Shown piece by piece: positions 152-7,563 of a stretch of 10,580 nt of DNA (positions within the stretch are counted from its first letter, which is position 1; every line of letters begins with the position of its first letter). The notes beneath the pieces were generated by a model that ran no database searches, was not told where the DNA came from, and was given only the letters and a program-made list of their open reading frames with translations. Position numbers and translations under genes: made by a program. The DNA comes from a candidate division WOR-3 bacterium (GTDB lineage: Bacteria; Hydrothermota; Tepidihabitantia; SM23-42; JAOAFX01): assembly GCA_037444665.1 (NCBI GenBank), contig JBBILZ010000068.1:1-10580 (forward strand), in the 5' to 3' direction.

Positions 152-201
152 GCAATGGTTGTAAAGGATTAGCACGGGTCATTCTCTTGGAGTCTTTATG
201 A
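148..201 (+). other. Junction scar / 17-aa mini-ORF (MSNGCKGLARVILLESL) resembling the fused left and right ends of the four-helix-bundle cassette
   Basis: 164-183 AAGGATTAGCACGGGTCATT matches 747-766 AAGGGTTAGCAAGGGTCATT at 18/20. It ends in TTGGAGTCTTTATG, like 1243-1256 TTGGAGGTTTTATG. ATGA overlaps with both neighbouring genes. Confidence 0.55.
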
Positions 202-731
202 TTGAAATATATCTGTTTTTGGTTTTTATGATTATCGCCGCAATTATTGCGATTGAAATAAAAGATTTGCTTGCTGCTGAATTGCTGTTGGAGCCAGTAG
301 GTTTTTCTGTGGCGATTCTATTTATCATTTTGCAGGCACCGGATCTGGCTATTGTGCAGATTGTGGTAGAGATTCTTACAGTTATTATCTTTGTTGCAGT
401 TATTTTCCGGACCGCGGATATTGATGAGACACTAACAAAAAAATTCTCACCTTTTCAGACCTCAGGCATTGTCTTTTATGGATTCTTTGTGGTGTTGTTT
501 ATATTAATAATGGAAAAACTTTTCACTCAATTACCAACATTTGGTTCACCAATAATGAAAGTTGCGAGTGAATATATTAAAATGGGACTCTATAAAGTTG
601 GTGGTGCAAATATTGTAGCAGATATTATTCTTGATTTTCGCGGTCTTGATACCTTAGGTGAGGCGACTGTGCTCTTTACCTCGGTCATCGGCGTGCTCGT
701 GGTGATGAGGAAGATAGGGAAGAAGATATGA
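198..731 (+). CDS. Mrp/Mbh membrane subunit, DUF4040 (MbhD-like) fused to an MbhE-like domain
   Basis: Hydrophobic N-terminal region with the APDLAIVQIVVE motif; C-terminal NIVADIILDFRGLDTLGEATVL motif (DFRxxDTxGE); GGAG RBS at 189-192. Confidence 0.85.
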   Translation: MIEIYLFLVFMIIAAIIAIEIKDLLAAELLLEPVGFSVAILFIILQAPDLAIVQIVVEILTVIIFVAVIFRTADIDETLTKKFSPFQTSGIVFYGFFVVLFILIMEKLFTQLPTFGSPIMKVASEYIKMGLYKVGGANIVADIILDFRGLDTLGEATVLFTSVIGVLVVMRKIGKKI

Positions 732-1135
732 ATAATAAGGGTAATCAAGGGTTAGCAAGGGTCATTAAGGGTAATCAGGGGTACAAAAAATTAGTAGTAT
801 GGCGTAATGCATGTGAATTAAGGATGTTCATCTACAAACTCACCAAAAACTTCTCCAGACAAGAATTTAAAAGAACTTCGCAGATGAACGATAGCGCAAT
901 GTCAGTAAAACAAAATATTCAGGAAGGTTATGCCCGTAGGTCTCTTGCTGAGTATATTCATTTTCTTAGCATCGCTCAAGGTTCATTAAGTGAATTGTTG
1001 GGTGACTTAGAAGATTGTTATGTAGATGGACTAATCTCTGAAAGTGATTTTAATTATGGAGAAAAACTGATAGGAAGAACAGATTATCTTTTTATGCGGT
1101 TAATCCAATCATTGAAGAGAAAAAAGGAGCAATAA
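728..1135 (+). CDS. Four-helix-bundle protein, copy 1 (TIGR02436 / 23S rRNA IVS-protein / Avd-like family)
   Basis: Family motifs YKKLVVW, SQMNDSAMSVKQNIQEG and FLSIAQGSLSEL. ATGA overlap with the upstream stop. The N-terminus is encoded by the left repeat arm. Confidence 0.9.
   Translation: MNNKGNQGLARVIKGNQGYKKLVVWRNACELRMFIYKLTKNFSRQEFKRTSQMNDSAMSVKQNIQEGYARRSLAEYIHFLSIAQGSLSELLGDLEDCYVDGLISESDFNYGEKLIGRTDYLFMRLIQSLKRKKEQ
736..783 (+). repeat. Cassette 1 left arm: five ~10-bp units (consensus YAAGGGTMAT)
   Basis: TAAGGGTAAT CAAGGGTTAG CAAGGGTCAT TAAGGGTAAT CAGGGGTA; G-tracts at 739, 749, 759, 769 and 778. Confidence 0.9.
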
Positions 1136-1190
1136 ACTATGGATTATCAGCACCTGTTATGGTTAATCAGAAACTCCGAGGGTGCTCTAT

Positions 1191-1242
1191 TTGCTCCCTT
1201 AATTACCCTTGATTCCCCTTTATTCCCCCTTATTCCCCTTAC
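1191..1242 (-). repeat. Cassette 1 right arm: five ~10-bp C-tract units, imperfect reverse complement of the left arm
   Basis: TTGCTCCCTT AATTACCCTT GATTCCCCTT TATTCCCCCT TATTCCCCTT; ATTACCCTT is the reverse complement of AAGGGTAAT. It ends immediately before the RBS TTGGAGG at 1243-1249. Confidence 0.9.
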
Positions 1243-1253
1243 TTGGAGGTTTT

Positions 1254-1685
1254 ATGAGTTTGATCGTTAAACGAATTACAAATCTTATCAGTGGATTTAT
1301 ATTTATGTATGGTATTTATATTATTCTTCATGGTCATCTTACACCGGGTAGTGGATTTGCCGGCGGAGTGATAATAGCAGGTGCATTGATATTAAGGGTA
1401 TTTGCCTTTGGAAGTGGTGCTGAAAAAGAGAAAAAGTCTTCAATTTTTGGTTCAGTATTTGAAAGTATTGGTGGTCTTATTTTCTGGGGTGCCGCATTTA
1501 CTGGTCTTTTGGTTGCGGGTGTCTTCTTTTTGAATGCACCCATATTTGGCCTTGGAAAGCCTTTGCATTTACTGAGTGCGGGTTTGATACCAATATGCAA
1601 CATTGCCATCGGTATAAAGGTTGCTGCGGGTCTATTCTCTATTTTCCTTGCCTTTGCTGCAATAAAATATTTGATGGAGGATTGA
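1254..1685 (+). CDS. mnhB: Na+/H+ antiporter subunit B / MbhF-like
   Basis: HGHLTPGSGFAGG motif (consensus HGHxxPGGGFxGG), ESIGG and IKVAAG. Start moved from TTG 1209 (inside the repeat arm) to ATG 1254 behind GGAGG. Confidence 0.9.
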   Translation: MSLIVKRITNLISGFIFMYGIYIILHGHLTPGSGFAGGVIIAGALILRVFAFGSGAEKEKKSSIFGSVFESIGGLIFWGAAFTGLLVAGVFFLNAPIFGLGKPLHLLSAGLIPICNIAIGIKVAAGLFSIFLAFAAIKYLMED

Positions 1686-2023
1686 TGATTATCTTTGCCA
1701 GTTGTGTAATATTATTTCTGATCGGTCTTTATGCGGTGGTGGTAAAGCGAAATTTAATAAAAATTGCTATAGGATTTGCGATTATGGAATATGCAGTGAA
1801 CCTTTTATTTGCGCTGATCGGCTTCAAAAAGGGTGCGATTGCACCGATCATTACAAAACTTGATATGCCGCATAATTTTGTTGACCCAATCCCGCAGGCA
1901 CTTGTTCTTACTGCAATTGTGATTGGTCTGGGAACTACTGCGCTACTACTCTCATTCATCGTCCGCATATACGAAAAATATAAGACAATGGATGTGGGAG
2001 AAATCAAAAAATTAAAGGGCTAA
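1685..2023 (+). CDS. mnhC: Na+/H+ antiporter subunit C / MbhG (NuoK-like)
   Basis: RNLIKIAIG and DPIPQALVLTAIVIG motifs. ATG 1685 overlaps the mnhB stop (TGATG), with GGAGGA at 1676-1681. Confidence 0.93.
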   Translation: MIIFASCVILFLIGLYAVVVKRNLIKIAIGFAIMEYAVNLLFALIGFKKGAIAPIITKLDMPHNFVDPIPQALVLTAIVIGLGTTALLLSFIVRIYEKYKTMDVGEIKKLKG

Positions 2024-2139
2024 AAAGAAGGGGTGAAGAAGGGTAAAAAAGGGTGAAGAAGGGTAAAAAGGGGAGAGAAAACAAGAATGGGTGAAGAAGG
2101 GAAAAGAAGGATTAAAAAGGGCGAAGAGGAGAAAAAAGG
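2024..2139 (+). repeat. Cassette 2 left arm: purine-rich 10-bp units (AAGGGTGAAG/AAGGGTAAAA)
   Basis: Starts at the mnhC stop codon. Five phased G-tracts at 2030, 2041, 2051, 2061 and 2070, then degenerate units to about 2139. Confidence 0.9.
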
Positions 2140-2527
2140 CTTGATGGGAAAGGGGTATATGAAGCTCATTGTCTGGAGGAATGCGTGTGAATTGCGTCGG
2201 CTCATATTTAACATCACCAAGAGGTTTTCTTATAAAGAATTTCGCCGCGCATCGCAAATGAATGATAGCGCAAGGTCTATTAAGCAAAATATCCAGGAAG
2301 GATATAAGAGGACATCTATAAAAGAATATATACATCACCTGTCAATTGCACAAGGTTCATTGGGTGAACTTTCCGGGGATGTAGATGATTGCTTTGAAGA
2401 TAAACTTATAATGGAAGAGGAATATAATAGAATTGATAACTTAATTAAGAGGACTGATTATCTATTTATGAGGTTAATTCAATCATTAAACAACAAAATA
2501 AAAAGGGGTAGACAATGTTTGGATTGA
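2087..2527 (+). CDS. Four-helix-bundle protein, copy 2 (TIGR02436 family)
   Basis: Same motifs as copy 1; 77/112 identical residues (about 69%, ungapped, counted by hand) over GY...IQSL. The start could alternatively be ATG 2144. Confidence 0.9.
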   Translation: MGEEGKRRIKKGEEEKKGLMGKGYMKLIVWRNACELRRLIFNITKRFSYKEFRRASQMNDSARSIKQNIQEGYKRTSIKEYIHHLSIAQGSLGELSGDVDDCFEDKLIMEEEYNRIDNLIKRTDYLFMRLIQSLNNKIKRGRQCLD

Positions 2528-2556
2528 AATCCGGCTTTCCCCTTGTTTATCTATCA

Positions 2557-2626
2557 TTCCCCCTCTTTACCTCTCTTTACCCCTCTTTCCCCCTCTTTCC
2601 CCGTCTTTACCCCTTTTTACCCCTTT
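2557..2626 (-). repeat. Cassette 2 right arm: about seven 10-bp pyrimidine units (CCCTCTTTAC-like), complementary to left arm 2
   Basis: CCCTCTTTAC CTCTCTTTAC CCCTCTTTCC CCCTCTTTCC CCGTCTTTAC CCCTTTTTAC CCCTTT; ends 4 bp before the RBS TTGGAGG at 2631-2637. Confidence 0.9.
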
Positions 2627-2642
2627 GTAATTGGAGGTATTT

Positions 2643-4130
2643 ATGACTTTTCTGCCACTCCTTTTTGCTTTGCCCTTATTGGGTGCATTTTTAATACCGC
2701 TGCTGTCTAAATTATGGAAACCTTTTGCTCCACTTATCGGAAATGTTATATCATTTGTGTTATTTATTCTCGCACTTTATGGTATTGCAATTACCCAGGC
2801 AGTTCCTATGGTTGTGTACAAGTTTGGTAACTGGCCACCACCCATTGGTATTGTCTTTGGTTTTGATTCATTTTCTGCTTTTATGGTTCTTGTTATTTCA
2901 ATTGTTGTTTTCACTGGGGCTATTTTTGCTGTCAGTTATTTGAAACATTATACGGGTCAATGGAAGTTCTGGACCCTTTATATGTTGATAACAGCAGGGT
3001 TGATGGGAATCTCAATTACCGGTGACCTATTCAATATGTTTGTCTGGATTGAAATATCTGCTATTGCATCCTATGCCCTGGTCAGTTTTGGTATTGAACA
3101 TGAAGAACTTGAGGCGGCATTTAAATATATGGTGATGGGTGAGATCGGAGGTATGACATTACTTTTGACCATCGCCTTGATCTACGCAAAGACCTCTACT
3201 CTAAACCTCGCAGACATCGGAAATTCATTACAGGAAATTAAAAATACTACATTCTACTGGTCCATCCTCGGGCTTTTATTATTCGCCTTCTCAATCAAAG
3301 CAGCACTTGTGCCATTCCATTTCTGGCTCCCTGATGCGCATCCATCAGCACCAGCACCAATTTCAAGTTTGCTCTCGGGAATATTTATTAAGGTTTTAGG
3401 GATCTATACGAGTGCCCGACTCATATTTAATATCTTTGGGCTAAGCAGGGAAAATGCACCATTCTTTTTTAATATATTGCTCGGGATTGGCTTATTGTCT
3501 ATAATCTTTGCTGGTATCACTGCATTGAACCAGAACGATTATAAGCGCCTGCTCGGTTATTCCACTGTCTCACAGATTGGTTATATAATGCTTGGGCTGG
3601 GGATTGGTAATTTCTATGGTGTGGCAGGTGCAATACTTTATATCCTGGCACATGGTGTATCAAAGGCATTGCTCTTTTTGACATCTGGTTCAGTAGTCTA
3701 TGCAACAGGGGAGAGGGATATAAATAAACTCGGAGGTCTGGGTGAAGCAATGCCCACAACTGCTTGGAGTTATAGAATTGGTGCACTTTCACTCATTGGA
3801 TTGCCACCACTTGTAGGATTCTTTGCCAAGTTTCTCATTGCCCTGGGTGCAATAAAACAGGGATTTTTGTGGCTGGCAATCGTTGCCATAGGATTCAGTG
3901 GAGTTACACTCGGTTATCTATTAAAGATTGAGAATAATGTCTATATGAAAAAGAATGGAGCGCAGGTTAAAGAATCACCTTTTCTTATGCGTGTAGCAAT
4001 GGTATTACTTGTGATTCTGATAATTATCCTTGGTATTGGTTATAAGCCGATATTTGATTTTGTCATTCAACCAGCAACCGAAGCATTGCTCAGGGGCACT
4101 GAATATATCAACTTAATTTTTGGTGGATGA
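2643..4130 (+). CDS. mnhD: Na+/H+ antiporter subunit D / MbhH (proton-conducting membrane transporter)
   Basis: GNWPPPIGI, TGDLFNMFVWIEI, KAALVPFHFWLPDAHPSAP, KRLLGYSTVSQIGY and GLPPLVGFFAK motifs; ATG 2643 follows GGAGG. Confidence 0.93.
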   Translation: MTFLPLLFALPLLGAFLIPLLSKLWKPFAPLIGNVISFVLFILALYGIAITQAVPMVVYKFGNWPPPIGIVFGFDSFSAFMVLVISIVVFTGAIFAVSYLKHYTGQWKFWTLYMLITAGLMGISITGDLFNMFVWIEISAIASYALVSFGIEHEELEAAFKYMVMGEIGGMTLLLTIALIYAKTSTLNLADIGNSLQEIKNTTFYWSILGLLLFAFSIKAALVPFHFWLPDAHPSAPAPISSLLSGIFIKVLGIYTSARLIFNIFGLSRENAPFFFNILLGIGLLSIIFAGITALNQNDYKRLLGYSTVSQIGYIMLGLGIGNFYGVAGAILYILAHGVSKALLFLTSGSVVYATGERDINKLGGLGEAMPTTAWSYRIGALSLIGLPPLVGFFAKFLIALGAIKQGFLWLAIVAIGFSGVTLGYLLKIENNVYMKKNGAQVKESPFLMRVAMVLLVILIIILGIGYKPIFDFVIQPATEALLRGTEYINLIFGG

Positions 4131-4151: not shown

Positions 4152-4637
4152 ATGAAGTATGTTATCTATTTCATAGTTAGTTTTGCCCTGTGGTTATTAT
4201 TGACATTAACGACAAATATAGACCATTTGATTGTAGGTGCCATTGTTGCGCTTCTGGGAACCATATTCTTTGGTGGTTATTTCACAGATAGACCGAAAAA
4301 ATTATTACAACCGCATCGTCTATTCTGGTTAATTGTCTATATTCCGGTATTCATCTGGTATATGGTCAAGGCAAATCTTGATGTTGCATACAGAACACTC
4401 CACCCAGAAAGGCCCCTTAATCCAGGAATTGTAAAGATAAAGACAAATCTGAAATCAGATACTGCAAAGGTCTTTCTCGCCAATTCTATTACACTTACAC
4501 CTGGCACGATGACCGTGGATATTGATGGTGATTATCTTTACATACACTGGATCTATGTGCAGGCAAGTGATATTGATGGAGCATCAAAGATTATTGCCCG
4601 TCCTTTTGAGAAGTTTTTAAGGAGGATCTTTGATTGA
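4152..4637 (+). CDS. mnhE: Na+/H+ antiporter subunit E / MbhA
   Basis: KANLDVA, PGIVKI, LANSITLTPGT and LYIHWI motifs; GGAG RBS at 4141-4144. Confidence 0.95.
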   Translation: MKYVIYFIVSFALWLLLTLTTNIDHLIVGAIVALLGTIFFGGYFTDRPKKLLQPHRLFWLIVYIPVFIWYMVKANLDVAYRTLHPERPLNPGIVKIKTNLKSDTAKVFLANSITLTPGTMTVDIDGDYLYIHWIYVQASDIDGASKIIARPFEKFLRRIFD

Positions 4638-4817
4638 AATTCGAAATTCGAAATCCGAAATTCGAAATAAATTCCAAATTCTAAATTCTAATCTCCAAAG
4701 CAGTTTTGGATTTAAATATTGTTTCGGATTTCGTGCTTCGGATTTAGGATTTTATAGCAGGAGGATCTTTGATTGAAATTCGAAATCCGAAATCCGAAAT
4801 TCGAAATAAATTTCAAA
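4620..4817 (+). repeat. 59-bp direct repeat (4620-4678 and 4759-4817, 57/59 identical) containing the mnhE 3' end plus a GAAATYC heptamer array
   Basis: AGGAGGATCTTTGATTGAAATTCGAAATYCGAAATCCGAAATTCGAAATAAATTYCAAA occurs twice, offset by 139 bp. Confidence 0.95.
4636..4753. repeat. Cargo-less heptamer inverted-repeat element (left GAAATYC/AAATTCT array; right TTCGGATTTCGTGCTTCGGATTTAGGATTT)
   Basis: The right part (about 4705-4753) is the imperfect reverse complement of the 7-bp array at 4636-4699, giving a long hairpin between mnhE and mnhF. Confidence 0.85.
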
Positions 4818-4851
4818 CCCGATTTATCGGGAGTATGATAAGGAGTTCGTT

Positions 4852-5106
4852 ATGATTCTGATGTTAATCGTCCTAACTTTCAGTGCCTTTTTGTGTCTTT
4901 ATAGAATTCAGCAGGGTCCAACCATTCCTGACCGTGCAGTTGGTGTGGATATAATGGGCACAATATTTGTTAATATTACTGCACTCACTGCGGTCTTTTA
5001 TAATCTGCCTTACCTTATGGATTTGGCTATCATCATTGCACTTTTCAGTTTTATTGGCACCCTTGCCCTGGCAAAGTATTTAGAAAAAAGGAGCCTTGAT
5101 GATTAA
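4852..5106 (+). CDS. mnhF: Na+/H+ antiporter subunit F / MbhB
   Basis: GPTIPDRAVGVD and FIGTLALAKYL motifs; AAGGAG RBS at 4840-4845. Confidence 0.93.
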   Translation: MILMLIVLTFSAFLCLYRIQQGPTIPDRAVGVDIMGTIFVNITALTAVFYNLPYLMDLAIIIALFSFIGTLALAKYLEKRSLDD

Positions 5107-5458
5107 CCCTATAGGTTGGATAATAATCTGGATTGGCATTCTTTTCAATCTTCTTGGAACCATAGGCCTTGTGAGGTTCCCTGATATTTATAACCGCCTC
5201 CAGACTTCAACAAAGTGTGTCACACTCGGTTCATTTGGATTAATGATAGGAATCTTTTTACTTTACGGTTTTACCCAAACTGGAATCAAGGCATTGATCT
5301 GCGGTGCATTTTTATTATTAACCAATCCTGTCGGTGCACATGCCTTGCTCAAGGGTTCGCTACATTATGGTATAAAATTGTGGAAGGGTTCGGTTGTTGA
5401 TAAGTATGGCGAAGAGAAACTCGGTGGAGAACGAATAGAAAAGGGTGAAGATGGGTAA
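5099..5458 (+). CDS. mnhG: Na+/H+ antiporter subunit G / MbhC
   Basis: GLVRFPDIYNRLQTSTKCVTLG and LTNPVGAHAL motifs; AGGAG at 5089-5093; start is ATG 5099 or TTG 5096. The last codons run into a purine repeat arm. Confidence 0.93.
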   Translation: MINPIGWIIIWIGILFNLLGTIGLVRFPDIYNRLQTSTKCVTLGSFGLMIGIFLLYGFTQTGIKALICGAFLLLTNPVGAHALLKGSLHYGIKLWKGSVVDKYGEEKLGGERIEKGEDG

Positions 5459-5519
5459 AAAGGGGTAAAAAAGGGTGAAAAAGGGGAGGAAACAAAAATG
5501 GGTGAAAAGGGATATAAAA
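5438..5519 (+). pseudogene. Orphan cassette-2-type left arm with the first codons (MGEKGYK) of a truncated four-helix-bundle gene
   Basis: Five phased G-tracts at 5443, 5453, 5462, 5473 and 5483. AAGGGGAGGAAACAAAAATGGGTGAA resembles 2068-2095. ATG 5498 reads MGEKGYK (compare GYKKL and GKGYMKL), then breaks at a GTAG palindrome. Confidence 0.65.
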
Positions 5520-5545
5520 GTAGGGACAAGGCTTGTCCTTGTCCG
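5520..5545 (+). repeat. REP-like palindrome with 5' GTAG
   Basis: GTAG-GGACAAGG-CTTGT-CCTTGTCC (8-bp stem); degenerate relative GTAGACAAGGCTTTTCCTTG at 6443-6462. Confidence 0.7.
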
Positions 5546-5573: not shown

Positions 5574-6179
5574 ATGAGAAAGCCTAAGTTAAGGGAACTC
5601 GGTGAGGCAATAAGAACATTAATCAAGGGACCATATACAAGTAAGTTTCCTTTTAAGCCATCACCAGCCGCACCAAGATTTCGGGGAAAGATAGAATTCA
5701 ATTTTGAAAAATGCATCCTGTGTGGTGCCTGTGTTGAGGTCTGTCCGGCAAATGCTCGTGCCCAGATTGATGATAAGATAAAAAAGGTCCGCCGAGAAAT
5801 CCATTATCAGGAGCGATGCATATATTGTGGCCAATGTGTAGCATACTGCACGACAAAAGAAGGTATTAGACATACGCAGGAATATGACCTGGCACAGATA
5901 ACAAAAGAAGGTTATGAAAATGCCATCGAAAAAGAATTGATTCTCTGTGAAAGGTGTGGGGAGGTTATCACAACCAGGGCGCATCTATTATGGATTGCAC
6001 GGCGAGTTGGTGAACTTGCCTATGCCAATCCCAATCTGTTTTTGGTTCTGTCTCAGGAATTTGGTGAAGAATCCATTCCTAAACCAAAAGATGCACCGCC
6101 ATATAGGAGTGAGCATTTAAGATTCTTGTGCCCTGCGTGCCGACGCACGGTCTATCTCAAAGAAATCTGGGGATATTAA
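5574..6179 (+). CDS. 2x[4Fe-4S] ferredoxin subunit, NuoI/MbhN-like
   Basis: GPYTSKFP...RFRGK N-terminus, CILCGACVEVCP and CIYCGQCVAYC, plus extra CERC and CPAC motifs; AGGAGG RBS at 5564-5569. Confidence 0.88.
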   Translation: MRKPKLRELGEAIRTLIKGPYTSKFPFKPSPAAPRFRGKIEFNFEKCILCGACVEVCPANARAQIDDKIKKVRREIHYQERCIYCGQCVAYCTTKEGIRHTQEYDLAQITKEGYENAIEKELILCERCGEVITTRAHLLWIARRVGELAYANPNLFLVLSQEFGEESIPKPKDAPPYRSEHLRFLCPACRRTVYLKEIWGY

Positions 6180-6193
6180 AAAATAGTCTAAGG

Positions 6194-6355
6194 TTATTGG
6201 GTGGGGATGCTGGTTTGGTTATAGGGCATGGTTTATGGTCAAAAAAATACCTATTGAGGAGAGTACTTTCATTCAATAATTTTAGGTATTTAGGTATTTT
6301 GGACTTTTAGGTATTTTAACTTATTGGGCATAGATGCTGGTTTGGTTAAAGGCAT
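6194..6355 (+). repeat. Imperfect ~36-bp direct repeat (6194-6229 / 6321-6355) enclosing a TTAGGTAT 8-mer array (6281-6317)
   Basis: TTATTGGG-N4-GATGCTGGTTTGGTTA(TAG/AA)GGCAT occurs twice, offset by 127 bp. Confidence 0.8.
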
Positions 6356-6365
6356 CCTTCCAATA

Positions 6366-6428
6366 TCACCCTGAATTATTTCTGGACTTGTTTTAGGGTT
6401 TTCTTTGTGCGATGAATCGCACCGCTAC
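6366..6428 (+). repeat. Composite palindromic repeat, copy A (TCACCCTGAA...CTTGTTTTAGGGT + REP-like GTGCGATGAATCGCACCGCTAC)
   Basis: Direct repeat of 7401-7474. The REP part reads GTAG-CG-GTGCGAT-TC-ATCGCAC on the minus strand. Confidence 0.8.
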
Positions 6429-6480
6429 GATGAATTTATATTGTAGACAAGGCTTTTCCTTGAAAGCCTGCACAAACTAC

Positions 6481-6528: not shown

Positions 6529-6750
6529 ATGGGCATATCATTGCATATACCGGACATAAACCTGAAAGAGGATGAAGTCAAACTTTTATTAGCGATAAAG
6601 CTCTTTGAAGAGGGTATAGTTTCTCTTGGTAGGGCGGCTGAGATAGCAGGGTATTCTGAAAAATCCTTTGTTGAAATTTTGCTTCATAGAGGGATATCCC
6701 CAATAAAGTATGAAGATATTTCAATTAATAAAGAGTTAAGTAATGCCTGA
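6529..6750 (+). CDS. UPF0175-family protein, putative antitoxin
   Basis: 73 aa with LAIKLFEEGIVSLGRAAEIAG...FVEILLHRGI, typical of UPF0175; overlaps the PIN gene. Confidence 0.88.
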   Translation: MGISLHIPDINLKEDEVKLLLAIKLFEEGIVSLGRAAEIAGYSEKSFVEILLHRGISPIKYEDISINKELSNA

Positions 6751-7192
6751 TGCCATAGTAATTGATACATCTGCGCTAATTGCCCTTGAAAAACTTGGAC
6801 TCCTATCATTACTATGTAATATTTACACTGAAGTTATTGTTCCGGAATCAGTTATAAAAGAATTTGGAGATATTTCTTTGCCATGCATTTCAGTTAAAAA
6901 AGTGGAAAGTAATCTGGTTAAATTACTGGTTACCGATTTAAATTTAGGGGAAGGTGAGGCAGAAGCAATTGCTTTAGCAAATGAGTCTGAACTAAGATTG
7001 ATGATTGACGAGGTAAAAGCACGGAGAATAGCAGAGGATATGGGATTAAAAATAACCGGAACAATCGGTTTCCTTATAAAAGCCCAAAAATTTGGTCTAA
7101 TCAAAAGTGCTTACGAAAAAGTAAAAGAACTTAAAGAAAAAGGTTTTTATATCGCAGATAATTTAATAGAAGAAATTAAAAATTTATCTTAG
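6743..7192 (+). CDS. PIN-domain / DUF3368-type (COG2405-like) putative toxin
   Basis: IVIDTSALIAL, VPESVIKE, LGEGEAEAIALA, LMIDEVKARRIA and GTIGFL motifs; 8-bp overlap with the antitoxin gene. Confidence 0.88.
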   Translation: MPDAIVIDTSALIALEKLGLLSLLCNIYTEVIVPESVIKEFGDISLPCISVKKVESNLVKLLVTDLNLGEGEAEAIALANESELRLMIDEVKARRIAEDMGLKITGTIGFLIKAQKFGLIKSAYEKVKELKEKGFYIADNLIEEIKNLS

Positions 7193-7257
7193 TTGAATTT
7201 TTCCTTTTAAATTACATTTCAGTGCTTTCATTATCTCATAGATACTTCTGAATGTTG

Positions 7258-7338
7258 AGATTCTTCGCCCGCCACTCTGTGTGGCGGGCGAAGAATGACA
7301 ACCTACCTTTTTGTCATTCTGAACGAAGTGAAGAATCT
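7258..7338. repeat. Inverted pair of TTGTCATTCTGAACGAAGTGAAGAATCT-type repeats; the left copy contains a perfect 16-bp-stem hairpin
   Basis: ATTCTTCGCCCGCCAC (7260-7275) pairs with GTGGCGGGCGAAGAAT (7281-7296). AGATTCTTC...AGAATGACAA (7258-7301) is the reverse complement of the ends of 7311-7338. Confidence 0.85.
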
Positions 7339-7400: not shown

Positions 7401-7474
7401 TCACCCTGAACCCTGGCCTGACGCCAGGACAGGCTTGTTTCGGGTCTTCTTTGTGCGATAAATCGCACCGCTAC
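7401..7474 (+). repeat. Composite palindromic repeat, copy B, with internal CCTGGC-CTGAC-GCCAGG hairpin
   Basis: TCACCCTGAA...CTTGTTTCGGGTCTTCTTTGTGCGATAAATCGCACCGCTAC matches 6366-6428. Confidence 0.8.
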
Positions 7475-7480
7475 AATTCT

Positions 7481-7530
7481 CCTGATACCCTGCTCCCCTG
7501 ATTCCCCTTGATAACCCTTGATTCCCTTTT
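7481..7530 (-). repeat. Orphan cassette-1-type right arm
   Basis: TGCTCCCCTG ATTCCCCTTG ATAACCCTTG ATTCCCTTTT; its reverse complement AAGGGAATCAAGGGTTATCAAGGGGAATCAGGGG closely resembles 737-781. Confidence 0.8.
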
Positions 7531-7563
7531 AGGCATTTAGGTATTTAGGCATTTTGGACTTTA
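7528..7563 (+). repeat. TTAGGYAT 8-mer array, second copy of 6281-6307
   Basis: TTTAGGCATTTAGGTATTTAGGCATTTTGGACTTT versus TTTAGGTATTTAGGTATTTTGGACTTT. Confidence 0.8.

Follow-up and report, generated by a model that had tools for sequence, protein, structure and literature searches.

The window studied here is the entire 10,580-nt contig JBBILZ010000068.1 (C68) of a candidate division WOR-3 bacterium, G000, whose 2.54-Mb metagenome-assembled genome (GCA_037444665.1) has a G+C content of 37.7%. Its plus strand carries a Mrp/Mbh-type cation-pump operon, recognised by profile matches, which is interrupted by two extra genes (728-1135 and 2087-2527) encoding four-helix-bundle (4HB) proteins of PF05635, a family that was discovered within intervening sequences (IVS) of rRNA. 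Each of these genes is enclosed by its own pair of complementary, periodic arms, the whole insert fits exactly between the stop codon of one operon gene and the ribosome-binding site (RBS) of the next, and the same junctions are filled, scarred or pristine in related genomes. The reading that we favour, and to which we would give an even chance, is that of an IVS-type mobile cassette, the arms being arrays of a motif that is probably read as a paired stem by the cassette's own protein, which resembles Avd of diversity-generating retroelements (DGRs). An earlier annotation of the same stretch, hereafter the original prediction, had already proposed an insert of the IVS type; what stands of it is a self-contained, transposase-free cassette of the rRNA-IVS family with cognate arms at stop/RBS junctions, and what found no specific support is the purpose assigned to the arms, i.e. 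looping the cargo out of the mRNA.

Anatomy of the two cassettes

All features described below lie on the plus strand unless otherwise stated. Cassette 1 separates the gene for an MbhD/MbhE-like membrane subunit of the MrpA C-terminal type (198..731; PF13244, E 1.5e-15; PF20501, E 3.4e-09) from mnhB (1254..1685; PF04039, E 1.9e-22), whose start was set by alignment with relatives, and cassette 2 separates the NuoK-like mnhC (1686..2023; PF00420, E 2.4e-25; placed by tblastn mapping) from mnhD (2643..4130; PF00361, E 5.5e-67; delimited by alignment with empty sites). The first cassette gene (4HB#1, 728..1135) encodes a 135-aa protein of a lineage that we call HB1 and the second (4HB#2, 2087..2527) a 146-aa protein of the HB2 lineage. 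They match PF05635 with 82.7 bits (E 2.6e-23) and 80.4 bits (E 1.4e-22), and TIGR02436 with 76.9 and 73.6 bits, respectively; both exceed the curated cut-offs of both profiles (33.8 and 24 bits), which bears out the family named by the original prediction. The two are paralogues as it stated, with a pairwise identity of 65-67% instead of the 69% or so first given, and, again as stated there, profile scans of the 15 window open reading frames (ORFs) detected no transposase, integrase or reverse transcriptase (RT) family. The ATG at 728 is the sole in-frame start 5' of the domain in 4HB#1; for 4HB#2 there are alternative starts at 2147 and 2159 besides ATG 2087, and HB2 orthologues begin at CAAGAATGGGT, immediately 3' of the MnhC stop codon.

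In the AlphaFold model of 4HB#2 (pLDDT 96.1) a short N-terminal turn precedes four long helices, consistent with a four-helix bundle. The solved structure nearest to the model is 2GSC (TM 0.85-0.94; TMq 0.82-0.86, root-mean-square deviation 0.9-1.0), to which the 4HB protein can also be matched by sequence (2gsc_A, E 4.6e-10), followed by 2RLD (TMq 0.73-0.79) and then by Avd (4DWL, TMq 0.76); five chains are listed in each of the 2GSC and 2RLD entries. Seven residues (N48, I49, E51, G52, Y53, S71 and E74) are invariant in 32 family sequences, E51 and E74 also among 10 divergent copies, and the NIxEG motif together with the second glutamate may be taken as family-defining, this being a reading of alignments and no curated rule.

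Within each cassette the arms are reverse complements of each other, with a period-10 G-tract array on the left and a C-tract array on the right. The left arm of cassette 1 (733..787; unit ~TAATCAAGGG, 5.2 copies, Tandem Repeats Finder (TRF) 733-783) lies within the 4HB#1 ORF as an N-terminal extension, and the TGA of the MbhD/E gene (729-731) overlaps the 4HB#1 start codon in an ATGA at 728-731; the right arm (1189..1242; unit ~CCCTTTATTC, period 10, TRF 1196-1240) is followed by GGAGG at 1245-1249 and the MnhB ATG at 1254. In cassette 2 the left arm (2025..2131; period 10/20, GGGTGAAGAAGGGTAAAAAA, ~10 units, TRF 2025-2127) begins 1 nt past the MnhC stop codon (2021-2023), its 3' half falling within the longest ORF from ATG 2087, and the right arm (2529..2635; period 10/20, TRF 2535-2624) ends at the GGAGG (2633-2637) that precedes the MnhD ATG at 2643. 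The inverted repeats extend over 52 nt at 73% in cassette 1 (736-787 / 1190-1241) and over 33 nt at 85% in cassette 2 (2041-2073 / 2590-2622), and the arm duplexes computed for them comprise 40 bp at -48.5 kcal/mol (735-788 / 1189-1242) and 80 bp at -95.6 kcal/mol (left side 2019-2131). Arms running from the upstream stop codon to the next RBS are what the original prediction had described, and the comparison with empty sites reported below confirmed these boundaries. Minimum free energy (MFE) folds of the whole cassettes, which it had recommended, close on the arms in both cases (z -2.0 for cassette 1 and -5.3 for cassette 2).

To score arm matching, we aligned each left flank locally with the reverse-complemented right flank and used 500 dinucleotide shuffles as the null. 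The scores of 40 (cassette 1) and 49 (cassette 2) were each reached by 0/500 shuffles. Duplex energy, confounded by G/C content and by purine/pyrimidine skew, was dropped as a measure of arm pairing in favour of this alignment. By energy alone cassette 1 was no better than shuffles (82/200, z -0.2) and cassette 2 stood at 3/200; much of the pairing energy therefore comes from the composition of a purine-rich facing a pyrimidine-rich tract. Pairing beyond that of composition-matched shuffles, on which the original prediction had staked its case, was thus found by sequence for both cassettes but not by duplex energy for cassette 1. An attempt to pair TRF arrays by reverse complement retrieved just 5 pairs and was given up as too insensitive.

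The specificity of the match was assessed in 38 genes, i.e. the 10 family copies of the genome and 28 genes from the phylum (those of the best 30 loci with enough flank). A gene's own right flank was its best partner in 27/38, and 24/38 lay above the 99th percentile of non-cognate pairs; both window cassettes ranked 1/38 against non-cognate flanks. By duplex energy only 10/28 cognate pairs of the phylum sample ranked first, and 0/100000 partner permutations reached the observed duplex-energy sum. A genome-wide scan returned 97 inverted repeats against 22 in a mirror-repeat control, and the top scorers among those with loops of 380-520 nt were 4HB cassettes. These results bear on the suspicion that there is no unit at all, common low-complexity repeats flanking small genes by chance or the 4HB proteins being ordinary subunits of the complex. 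Short-period arrays are indeed plentiful in the genome (TRF with a lax threshold gives 1484 merged rows), and most of its GGG[TA] period-10 arrays, treated below, have no 4HB gene; the cognate specificity of the pairing in the 38-gene and shuffle tests, the permutations, the excess over the mirror control with 4HB cassettes at its top and the exactness of the insert boundaries against empty sites leave this explanation next to no probability.

Occupancy of operon junctions among relatives

We compared 30 orthologous operons, that of the window and those of 29 relatives, by aligning filled with empty sites. Operons with empty MbhDE|MnhB and MnhC|MnhD junctions, for which the original prediction had proposed to look, were found. 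Empty sites consist of the stop codon, GGAGG, 4-5 nt and ATG, and when they are aligned to the window, the insert boundaries coincide exactly with stop codon and RBS in both cassettes, and no target duplication is visible at either, as had been claimed. At MbhDE|MnhB (junction 1, 30 loci read) a 4HB gene is present in 7 loci and 10-86 nt are found in the remaining 23. At MnhC|MnhD (junction 2, 27 loci readable) HB2 occupies 9 and a lineage Y 2, arm remnants are found in 3, and 13 are pristine. MnhB|MnhC, which is empty in the window, holds a lineage Z in 4 of the 30 loci read. The three junctions carry 22 cassette genes from four protein clades, and all 22 are co-oriented with the operon. In the tree of 4HB proteins HB1 and HB2 are sisters (junctions 1 and 2), lineages X and Y are likewise sisters (junctions 1 and 2), and Z is separate from both pairs.

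On the host tree, sister genomes differ in occupancy (G000/G008, G002/G009, G005/G014 and G015/G011). G008, with an MnhB 97% identical to that of the window, has HB1 and Z cassettes and retains at junction 2 only the 25-nt start of an HB2-type left arm; junction 2 is filled by Y in G002 vs HB2 in its sister G009; G011 is empty at both junctions that are filled in its sister G015; and only the right arm is left at MnhC|MnhD in G035 (HB2 type) and G039 (Y type). Vertical conservation congruent with the operon tree, the outcome that according to the original prediction would speak against insertion, was not seen, presence being patchy and incongruent. Read from the aligned loci, this shows that the 4HB units of the window are discrete cassettes and not parts of the operon, and that such units have been gained, lost with arm scars left behind and replaced by other lineages at the same junctions among congeners.

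The same comparison addresses the possibility of a domesticated regulatory module of the Mrp/Mbh-type operon, one that would tune the stoichiometry or stability of mRNA segments and be kept for that. The 4HB ORFs are intact, and HB2 occupies one and the same junction in 9 genomes of two families, with identities of 67-79%, similar to those of the flanking MnhB (67-87%), as such a module would have it. It would not be expected, however, that 13 of 27 informative junctions are pristine, that the closest relative has lost the cassette, that a junction filled by one lineage in a genome holds another in its sister, or that the same design recurs in unrelated operons and phyla, and we consider this explanation very unlikely.

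Other cassettes in the genome, the phylum and beyond

The genome contains 10 PF05635 genes dispersed on 8 contigs, all of them co-oriented with both neighbours. The genes on either side are functional partners, for example fumarase alpha|beta, a pair of acyl-CoA dehydrogenases or MvhD|Hdr-like genes; among the ORFs examined no rRNA neighbour was found at any of the 10 copies, and the neighbours scanned beside the other nine copies included no transposase, integrase or RT. The genome, at a completeness of 99.5%, has 0 RVT_1 matches. Matched arms, whose absence from the other paralogues would have spoken against the original prediction, were clearly recovered in most of them (7/10 copies, 0/500 shuffles). 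The arm sequence differs in nearly every one of the 10, and no near-identical copies of the window cassettes exist in the genome. In one copy (C4:57985-58302 region) the 4HB ORF reads in frame through the right arm into the next gene, a glyoxalase-fold (methylmalonyl-CoA epimerase-like) one, to give a fusion frame of 279 aa.

Within the phylum the family occurs in 77/151 sampled genomes, with up to 16 copies each, and in two loci (L041 of G062 and L045 of G119) a 4HB cassette with CGTAAAT/CGTGAAT arms is placed between cas1 and cas2. A search with our own hidden Markov model found no further 4HB-like ORF among 28 candidates inside inverted repeats with loops of 300-900 nt; 4 of 10 listed loop candidates looked by eye like small winged-helix regulators flanked by palindromes, and were judged unrelated. 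The cassette protein had no match in 50,697 phage records (E 1e-3), and the 14 plasmid records that matched it, mostly cyanobacterial, all did so at <60% identity (31-43% among the 10 listed).

The arm unit follows the protein clade

Each cassette lineage has its own unit core, namely GGGT in HB1/HB2, GGCA in X, GGCT in Y and GTGAAACGG or CCGTKAA in Z. Beyond the operon we fetched 65 relatives of HB2, of which 60 were usable, from unrelated genomic contexts in Omnitrophota, Patescibacteria, Margulisiibacteriota, Planctomycetota, Bacteroidota, Verrucomicrobiota and other phyla. GGG[TA] units are present on both sides in 19/24 relatives of at least 53% identity vs 5/36 below that value (Fisher 5e-07); the next clade has CGGTTA-type units and a further one TGGAAT or TGGAGT. 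Mapped on the protein tree, unit type requires 12 changes vs a shuffle mean of 26.9 (0/200 as low). As judged from this tree, the unit type is shown to travel with the protein clade across phyla and contexts. Since arms and gene travel together, a mobile unit is established, and since the unit core persists where the proteins are only 50-66% identical and the spacers vary, a constraint on sequence, not on pairing alone, is suggested.

A proposed model of self-recognition

We propose an element made up of no more than a promoterless PF05635 4HB gene and, on its two sides, arrays of a short repeat unit in inverted orientation. The arms would repeat a motif that the protein of the same cassette, Avd-like and probably pentameric, recognises, most likely in the form of a paired, periodically interrupted stem, by analogy with Avd on its RNA stem-loop. 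In the structural report on Avd, the pentamer contacts an 11-bp RNA stem-loop via all five protomers, which use the same residues on flipped-out bases; this stem-loop adjoins the avd gene, and pairing of segments up- and downstream of the template is required (bioRxiv 10.1101/2023.10.23.563531). The protein-arm complex of the cassettes would act as a self-recognition module for maintenance or movement of the element, with cutting and joining performed by host enzymes, or by RNase III on the transcript. Tolerance of the insert would follow from its co-orientation, from an RBS that it supplies or leaves intact, and from its integration into translational coupling. It is because of the covariation of arms and protein, and of this only, that we bring in recognition of one by the other.

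Several points weigh against this reading. Co-inheritance of gene and arms would equally give the covariation, and as kin share labels, the covariation of unit and clade shows only that arms and gene travel jointly. Periods of 7, 8, 10 and 20 nt and unit numbers of ~4.5-10 fit poorly with a fixed oligomer geometry. Among the paralogues in the genome, 2/10 (both on C9) lack significant arms and 1 is borderline (19/500), and in 11/38 genes of the flank test the cognate arm is not the best-ranking one. An 18-member Verrucomicrobiota clade (including L144, L148, L155 and L157) has a left GGAGT-type array and no recognisable right arm; it may be a fixed, decaying or domesticated form. The ~18 composite arrays without a 4HB gene described below make clear that the repeat vocabulary is not exclusive to cassettes. 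Neither a transposase nor an RT was found (window ORFs; RVT_1 in the genome), and the window copies, 65-67% identical with no near-identical ones elsewhere in the genome, do not speak for recent transposition. Finally, part of the patchiness among relatives could reflect homologous exchange of operon segments together with deletions. As a separate observation, the listed flanks of the Verrucomicrobiota clade with the left array apparently place it at one conserved position.

The proposed looping out at the level of RNA

According to the original prediction, the paired arms loop out the cargo and join stop codon and RBS. More generally, the arms could serve solely as a long double-stranded RNA stem of the polycistronic transcript, cut by RNase III or looping the cargo out, with a protein that does not recognise them; the 4HB mRNA would then be released, or stop codon and RBS be joined so that insertion is made neutral. 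In its favour, the arms close the MFE fold of either cassette, every cassette runs in the direction of transcription, and stems of 40 and 80 bp offer RNase III a sufficient length; the enzyme itself is encoded in the genome (PF14622, E 1.5e-30). There is also a precedent in Coxiella burnetii, where the IVS in helix 45 of 23S rRNA contains an ORF of the same family, S23p, and RNase III cleaves the 28-bp terminal stem of the insert in the middle (PMC4990558). By this analogy, RNase III cleavage of the window cassette transcripts is possible.

If the arms were kept as a sense-strand RNA stem, G·U should exceed A·C among their mismatches, and no such bias exists: the 37 arm pairs hold 1088 matches, 128 transversions, 40 G·U and 35 A·C (p 0.64), and by our estimate a 2:1 ratio is unlikely with these 75 transitions. 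The mismatched positions resemble spacers free of constraint that separate cores with a perfect match. Furthermore, the left arm is inside the longest ORF in HB1, in HB2 and in the cassettes of contigs C18 and C36, both arms are within the ORF of the Z cassette, and translation is coupled through the cassette via ATGA overlaps, at 728-731 in the window and at Z|MnhC in G008. Ribosomes would therefore keep melting the stem, with which a persistent juxtaposition of stop codon and RBS is hard to reconcile; the in-frame fusion of the C4 copy points the same way. A stem requires neither a periodic unit nor a core conserved at 50-66% identity across phyla, and the duplex energy of cassette 1 is no better than that of composition-matched shuffles. 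With no wobble bias, translated arms and a conserved unit core, the looping-out of the cargo gained no specific support, and the RNA-level explanation as a whole is one that we regard as possible, if on the unlikely side.

Gene-less hairpins, a probable scar and other inserts

Further downstream in the operon, between mnhE (4152-4637) and mrpF (4852-5106), lies a gene-less hairpin (4620..4820) with period-7 arms of the GAAATTC / GGATTTC type (TRF 4636-4688 and 4775-4807), the arm type found around the 4HB genes of C18 and C36. The mnhE|mrpF junction measures -1 to 35 nt in the sister family vs 45-276 nt in the genus. A direct duplication of 59 nt (4620-4678 / 4759-4817, 97%) comprises the last 18 nt of mnhE and the left arm, and the arm order is left-right-left, as it also is in L060 and L048, there around a 4HB gene. 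More gene-less hairpins of cassette arm types were located at C19:24374-24492, C29:15335-15460 and C36:15416-15602. Between mnhG (5096-5458) and the gene for a NuoI-like ferredoxin (5574-6179) a solo HB2-type G-arm (5438..5533; TRF 5453-5486), 69-74% like 2007-2122, comes with a small hairpin (AGGGACAAGGCTTGTCCTTGTCC) and a short ORF that begins ATGGGTGAA; the corresponding junction of G049 holds a 4HB gene, and by its sequence the solo arm is probably the scar of a lost cassette.

Two other kinds of cargo were met in these operons. At MnhD|MnhE, a 477-nt insert in L072 (G002; 2750-3127) and L074 (G009) encodes an endonuclease-like protein of DUF559 (E 8.4e-37), has inverted sequences of its own on the two sides, one G-rich and the other C-rich, and is a second kind of junction cassette. 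At MnhG|ferredoxin, a 759-nt insert in L072 (751-1478) encodes a pair of NTP_transf_2 and HEPN proteins.

Such findings are pertinent to a DNA-level explanation, in which the arms are the terminal binding sites of a transposase or recombinase whose gene lies elsewhere or has been lost, with the 4HB gene as passenger or accessory, after the manner of foldback elements or miniature inverted-repeat transposable elements (MITEs). Foldback elements have terminal inverted repeats built of short tandem subrepeats. The cassettes are alike in their inverted termini of tandem subrepeats, in the gene-less hairpins of the same arm types scattered around the genome and in having no transposase inside; moreover, the complementarity of the arms is strand-symmetric, the left-right-left order (4620-4817, L060 and L048) is that expected after integration at an arm-like site, and the DUF559 insert with its own inverted arms and the NTP_transf_2 + HEPN insert represent other small cargo at the same junctions. 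Unlike those elements, the cassettes have termini that vary between the copies of a single genome, a variation that one transposase acting in trans would not accept. Their cargo nearly always belongs to PF05635, which speaks against its being a passenger. The lack of visible target-site duplications at the two window cassettes, and that of transposase, integrase and RT in the window and beside the other nine copies, count further against the DNA-level explanation, which we think unlikely.

Composite arrays

The genome has 32 GGG[TA] period-10 arrays vs 0-2 in five shuffles. Some 18 of these 32 (~18) belong to intergenic composites of 200-370 nt without a 4HB gene, made of modules like the arms of several cassette lineages in a recurring order and usually placed just 3' of, and antisense to, a gene (for instance C3:30130-30500, C12:34130-34460 and C10:25470-25720 of G000, with ~15 more). 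For 19/21 composite arrays no reverse-complement partner was found within 6 kb. The window contains one member of this dispersed family, a one-sided array of arm-like modules on the minus strand (7438..7563), with an HB1-type unit at 7497-7527 and TTTAGGCA at period 8, and a 40-nt direct repeat is common to this array and to 6392-6431 (90%).

A toxin-antitoxin pair, UPF0175 + PIN (DUF3368), at 6529-7192 is bracketed by repeats common to 6281-6431 and 7438-7563, with period-8 TTTAGGTA arrays at 6281 and 7528 on either side of it; this sequence arrangement suggests that the pair may also be an inserted module. At 7254-7302 there is a 22-nt hairpin, 91% complementary with a 5-nt loop, followed by gtcattctgaacgaagtgaagaatc, which may be a dispersed repeat of uncultivated bacteria. 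Elsewhere in the genome, inverted AAAGACTAAA-type arrays bracket whole large genes (C12:34376-34431 / 37722-37778 and C12:41520-41571 / 38863-38914), the genes within being open frames of 928 and 627 aa and no small cassette.

Relation to known systems

The closest parallels are the ORF-bearing IVS in the 23S rRNA of Coxiella and Leptospira, which have in common with our cassettes the PF05635 family, a small ORF within complementary stem-forming termini, a sporadic and horizontally influenced distribution and no transposase. Unlike them, the window cassettes are inserted at stop|RBS junctions of a protein-coding operon and not in the loop of an rRNA helix, and the arms of the cassettes repeat in tandem a unit of 7-10 nt that is specific to the clade, a feature that we have not met in descriptions of rRNA IVS; some of these arms may be translated. 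Excision by RNase III is a feature of the rRNA IVS and would be no more than a possibility for the window cassettes. That the ORF of an IVS serves mobility is an old hypothesis, and the origin and spread of IVS elements are still described as an open question (PMC4990558). In bacteria of the candidate phyla radiation (CPR), members of the family occupy several scattered insertion sites in 16S and 23S rRNA (PMC11270868).

PF05635 is also the commonest family next to DGR RTs, as stated in a DGR study (PMC10053308). The model of 4HB#2 has the same fold as Avd (TMq 0.76 to 4DWL and to entries of the DGR ribonucleoprotein (RNP)); unlike a DGR, the cassettes belong to a genome with 0 RVT_1 and have no pair of template and variable repeats, and the 4HB proteins are only ~10% identical to Avd.

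Integron cassettes are promoterless single genes, inserted co-directionally by means of an imperfect palindrome recognised by structure and not by sequence. Our cassettes are likewise promoterless single-gene units, co-directional and expressed from host transcription. They differ in having arms on both sides instead of a single 3' attC, in the lack of intI, attI and an array, and in their dispersal across operons; no integrase family was present among the ORFs scanned around cassettes.

Heptamer repeat arrays (TAACTGA) just 5' of start codons, and intergenic assemblages of mixed heptamers, are reported for marine Beggiatoaceae, cyanobacteria and Bacteroidetes (PMC4679880). The assemblages resemble the composite arrays of the genome. 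The repeats are presented as direct ones that enclose no gene, and neither 'intervening' nor 'S23' occurs in the text of that article. By protein family and anatomy the window cassettes are IVS elements, by location they are not rRNA IVS, and by defining features they are not a DGR, an insertion sequence element, a MITE or an integron cassette. Searches of the literature outside subscription journals returned no account of the PF05635 family as repeat-armed cassettes in mRNA operons.

Significance

Catalogues of candidate cas genes reportedly include family members found between cas1 and cas2 (PMC3936711, PMC10910872). In view of the cassettes at this position, 4HB genes annotated there may simply be such inserts.

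A bolder version of the self-recognition model, which we hold to be improbable, would see in the cassettes a minimal self-recognising mobile RNP. An Avd-like pentamer would read its own periodic stem, and an RNA or single-stranded hairpin intermediate, together with host enzymes, would move gene and arms into transcribed sites that tolerate structure, i.e. operon junctions, cas1|cas2 and rRNA helices. If this were true, the classic rRNA IVS would be just one instance of it, the Avd module of DGRs would be its cousin or a descendant that was domesticated, and the composite one-sided arrays would be stacked footprints or trans-acting partners of cassettes.

The PF05635 family has been without an assigned function since rRNA IVS were described. 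The cation-pump operon offers a natural experiment on it, with three junctions and four lineages, each with its own arm unit, in filled, scarred and pristine states among congeners. What it shows is that gene and arms form one unit, that operon junctions are a habitat of the family outside rRNA, and that the arm unit covaries with the protein. This covariation turns the question of function into one that can be put at the bench, through binding of the protein to its own arms as RNA or DNA and through the action of RNase III.

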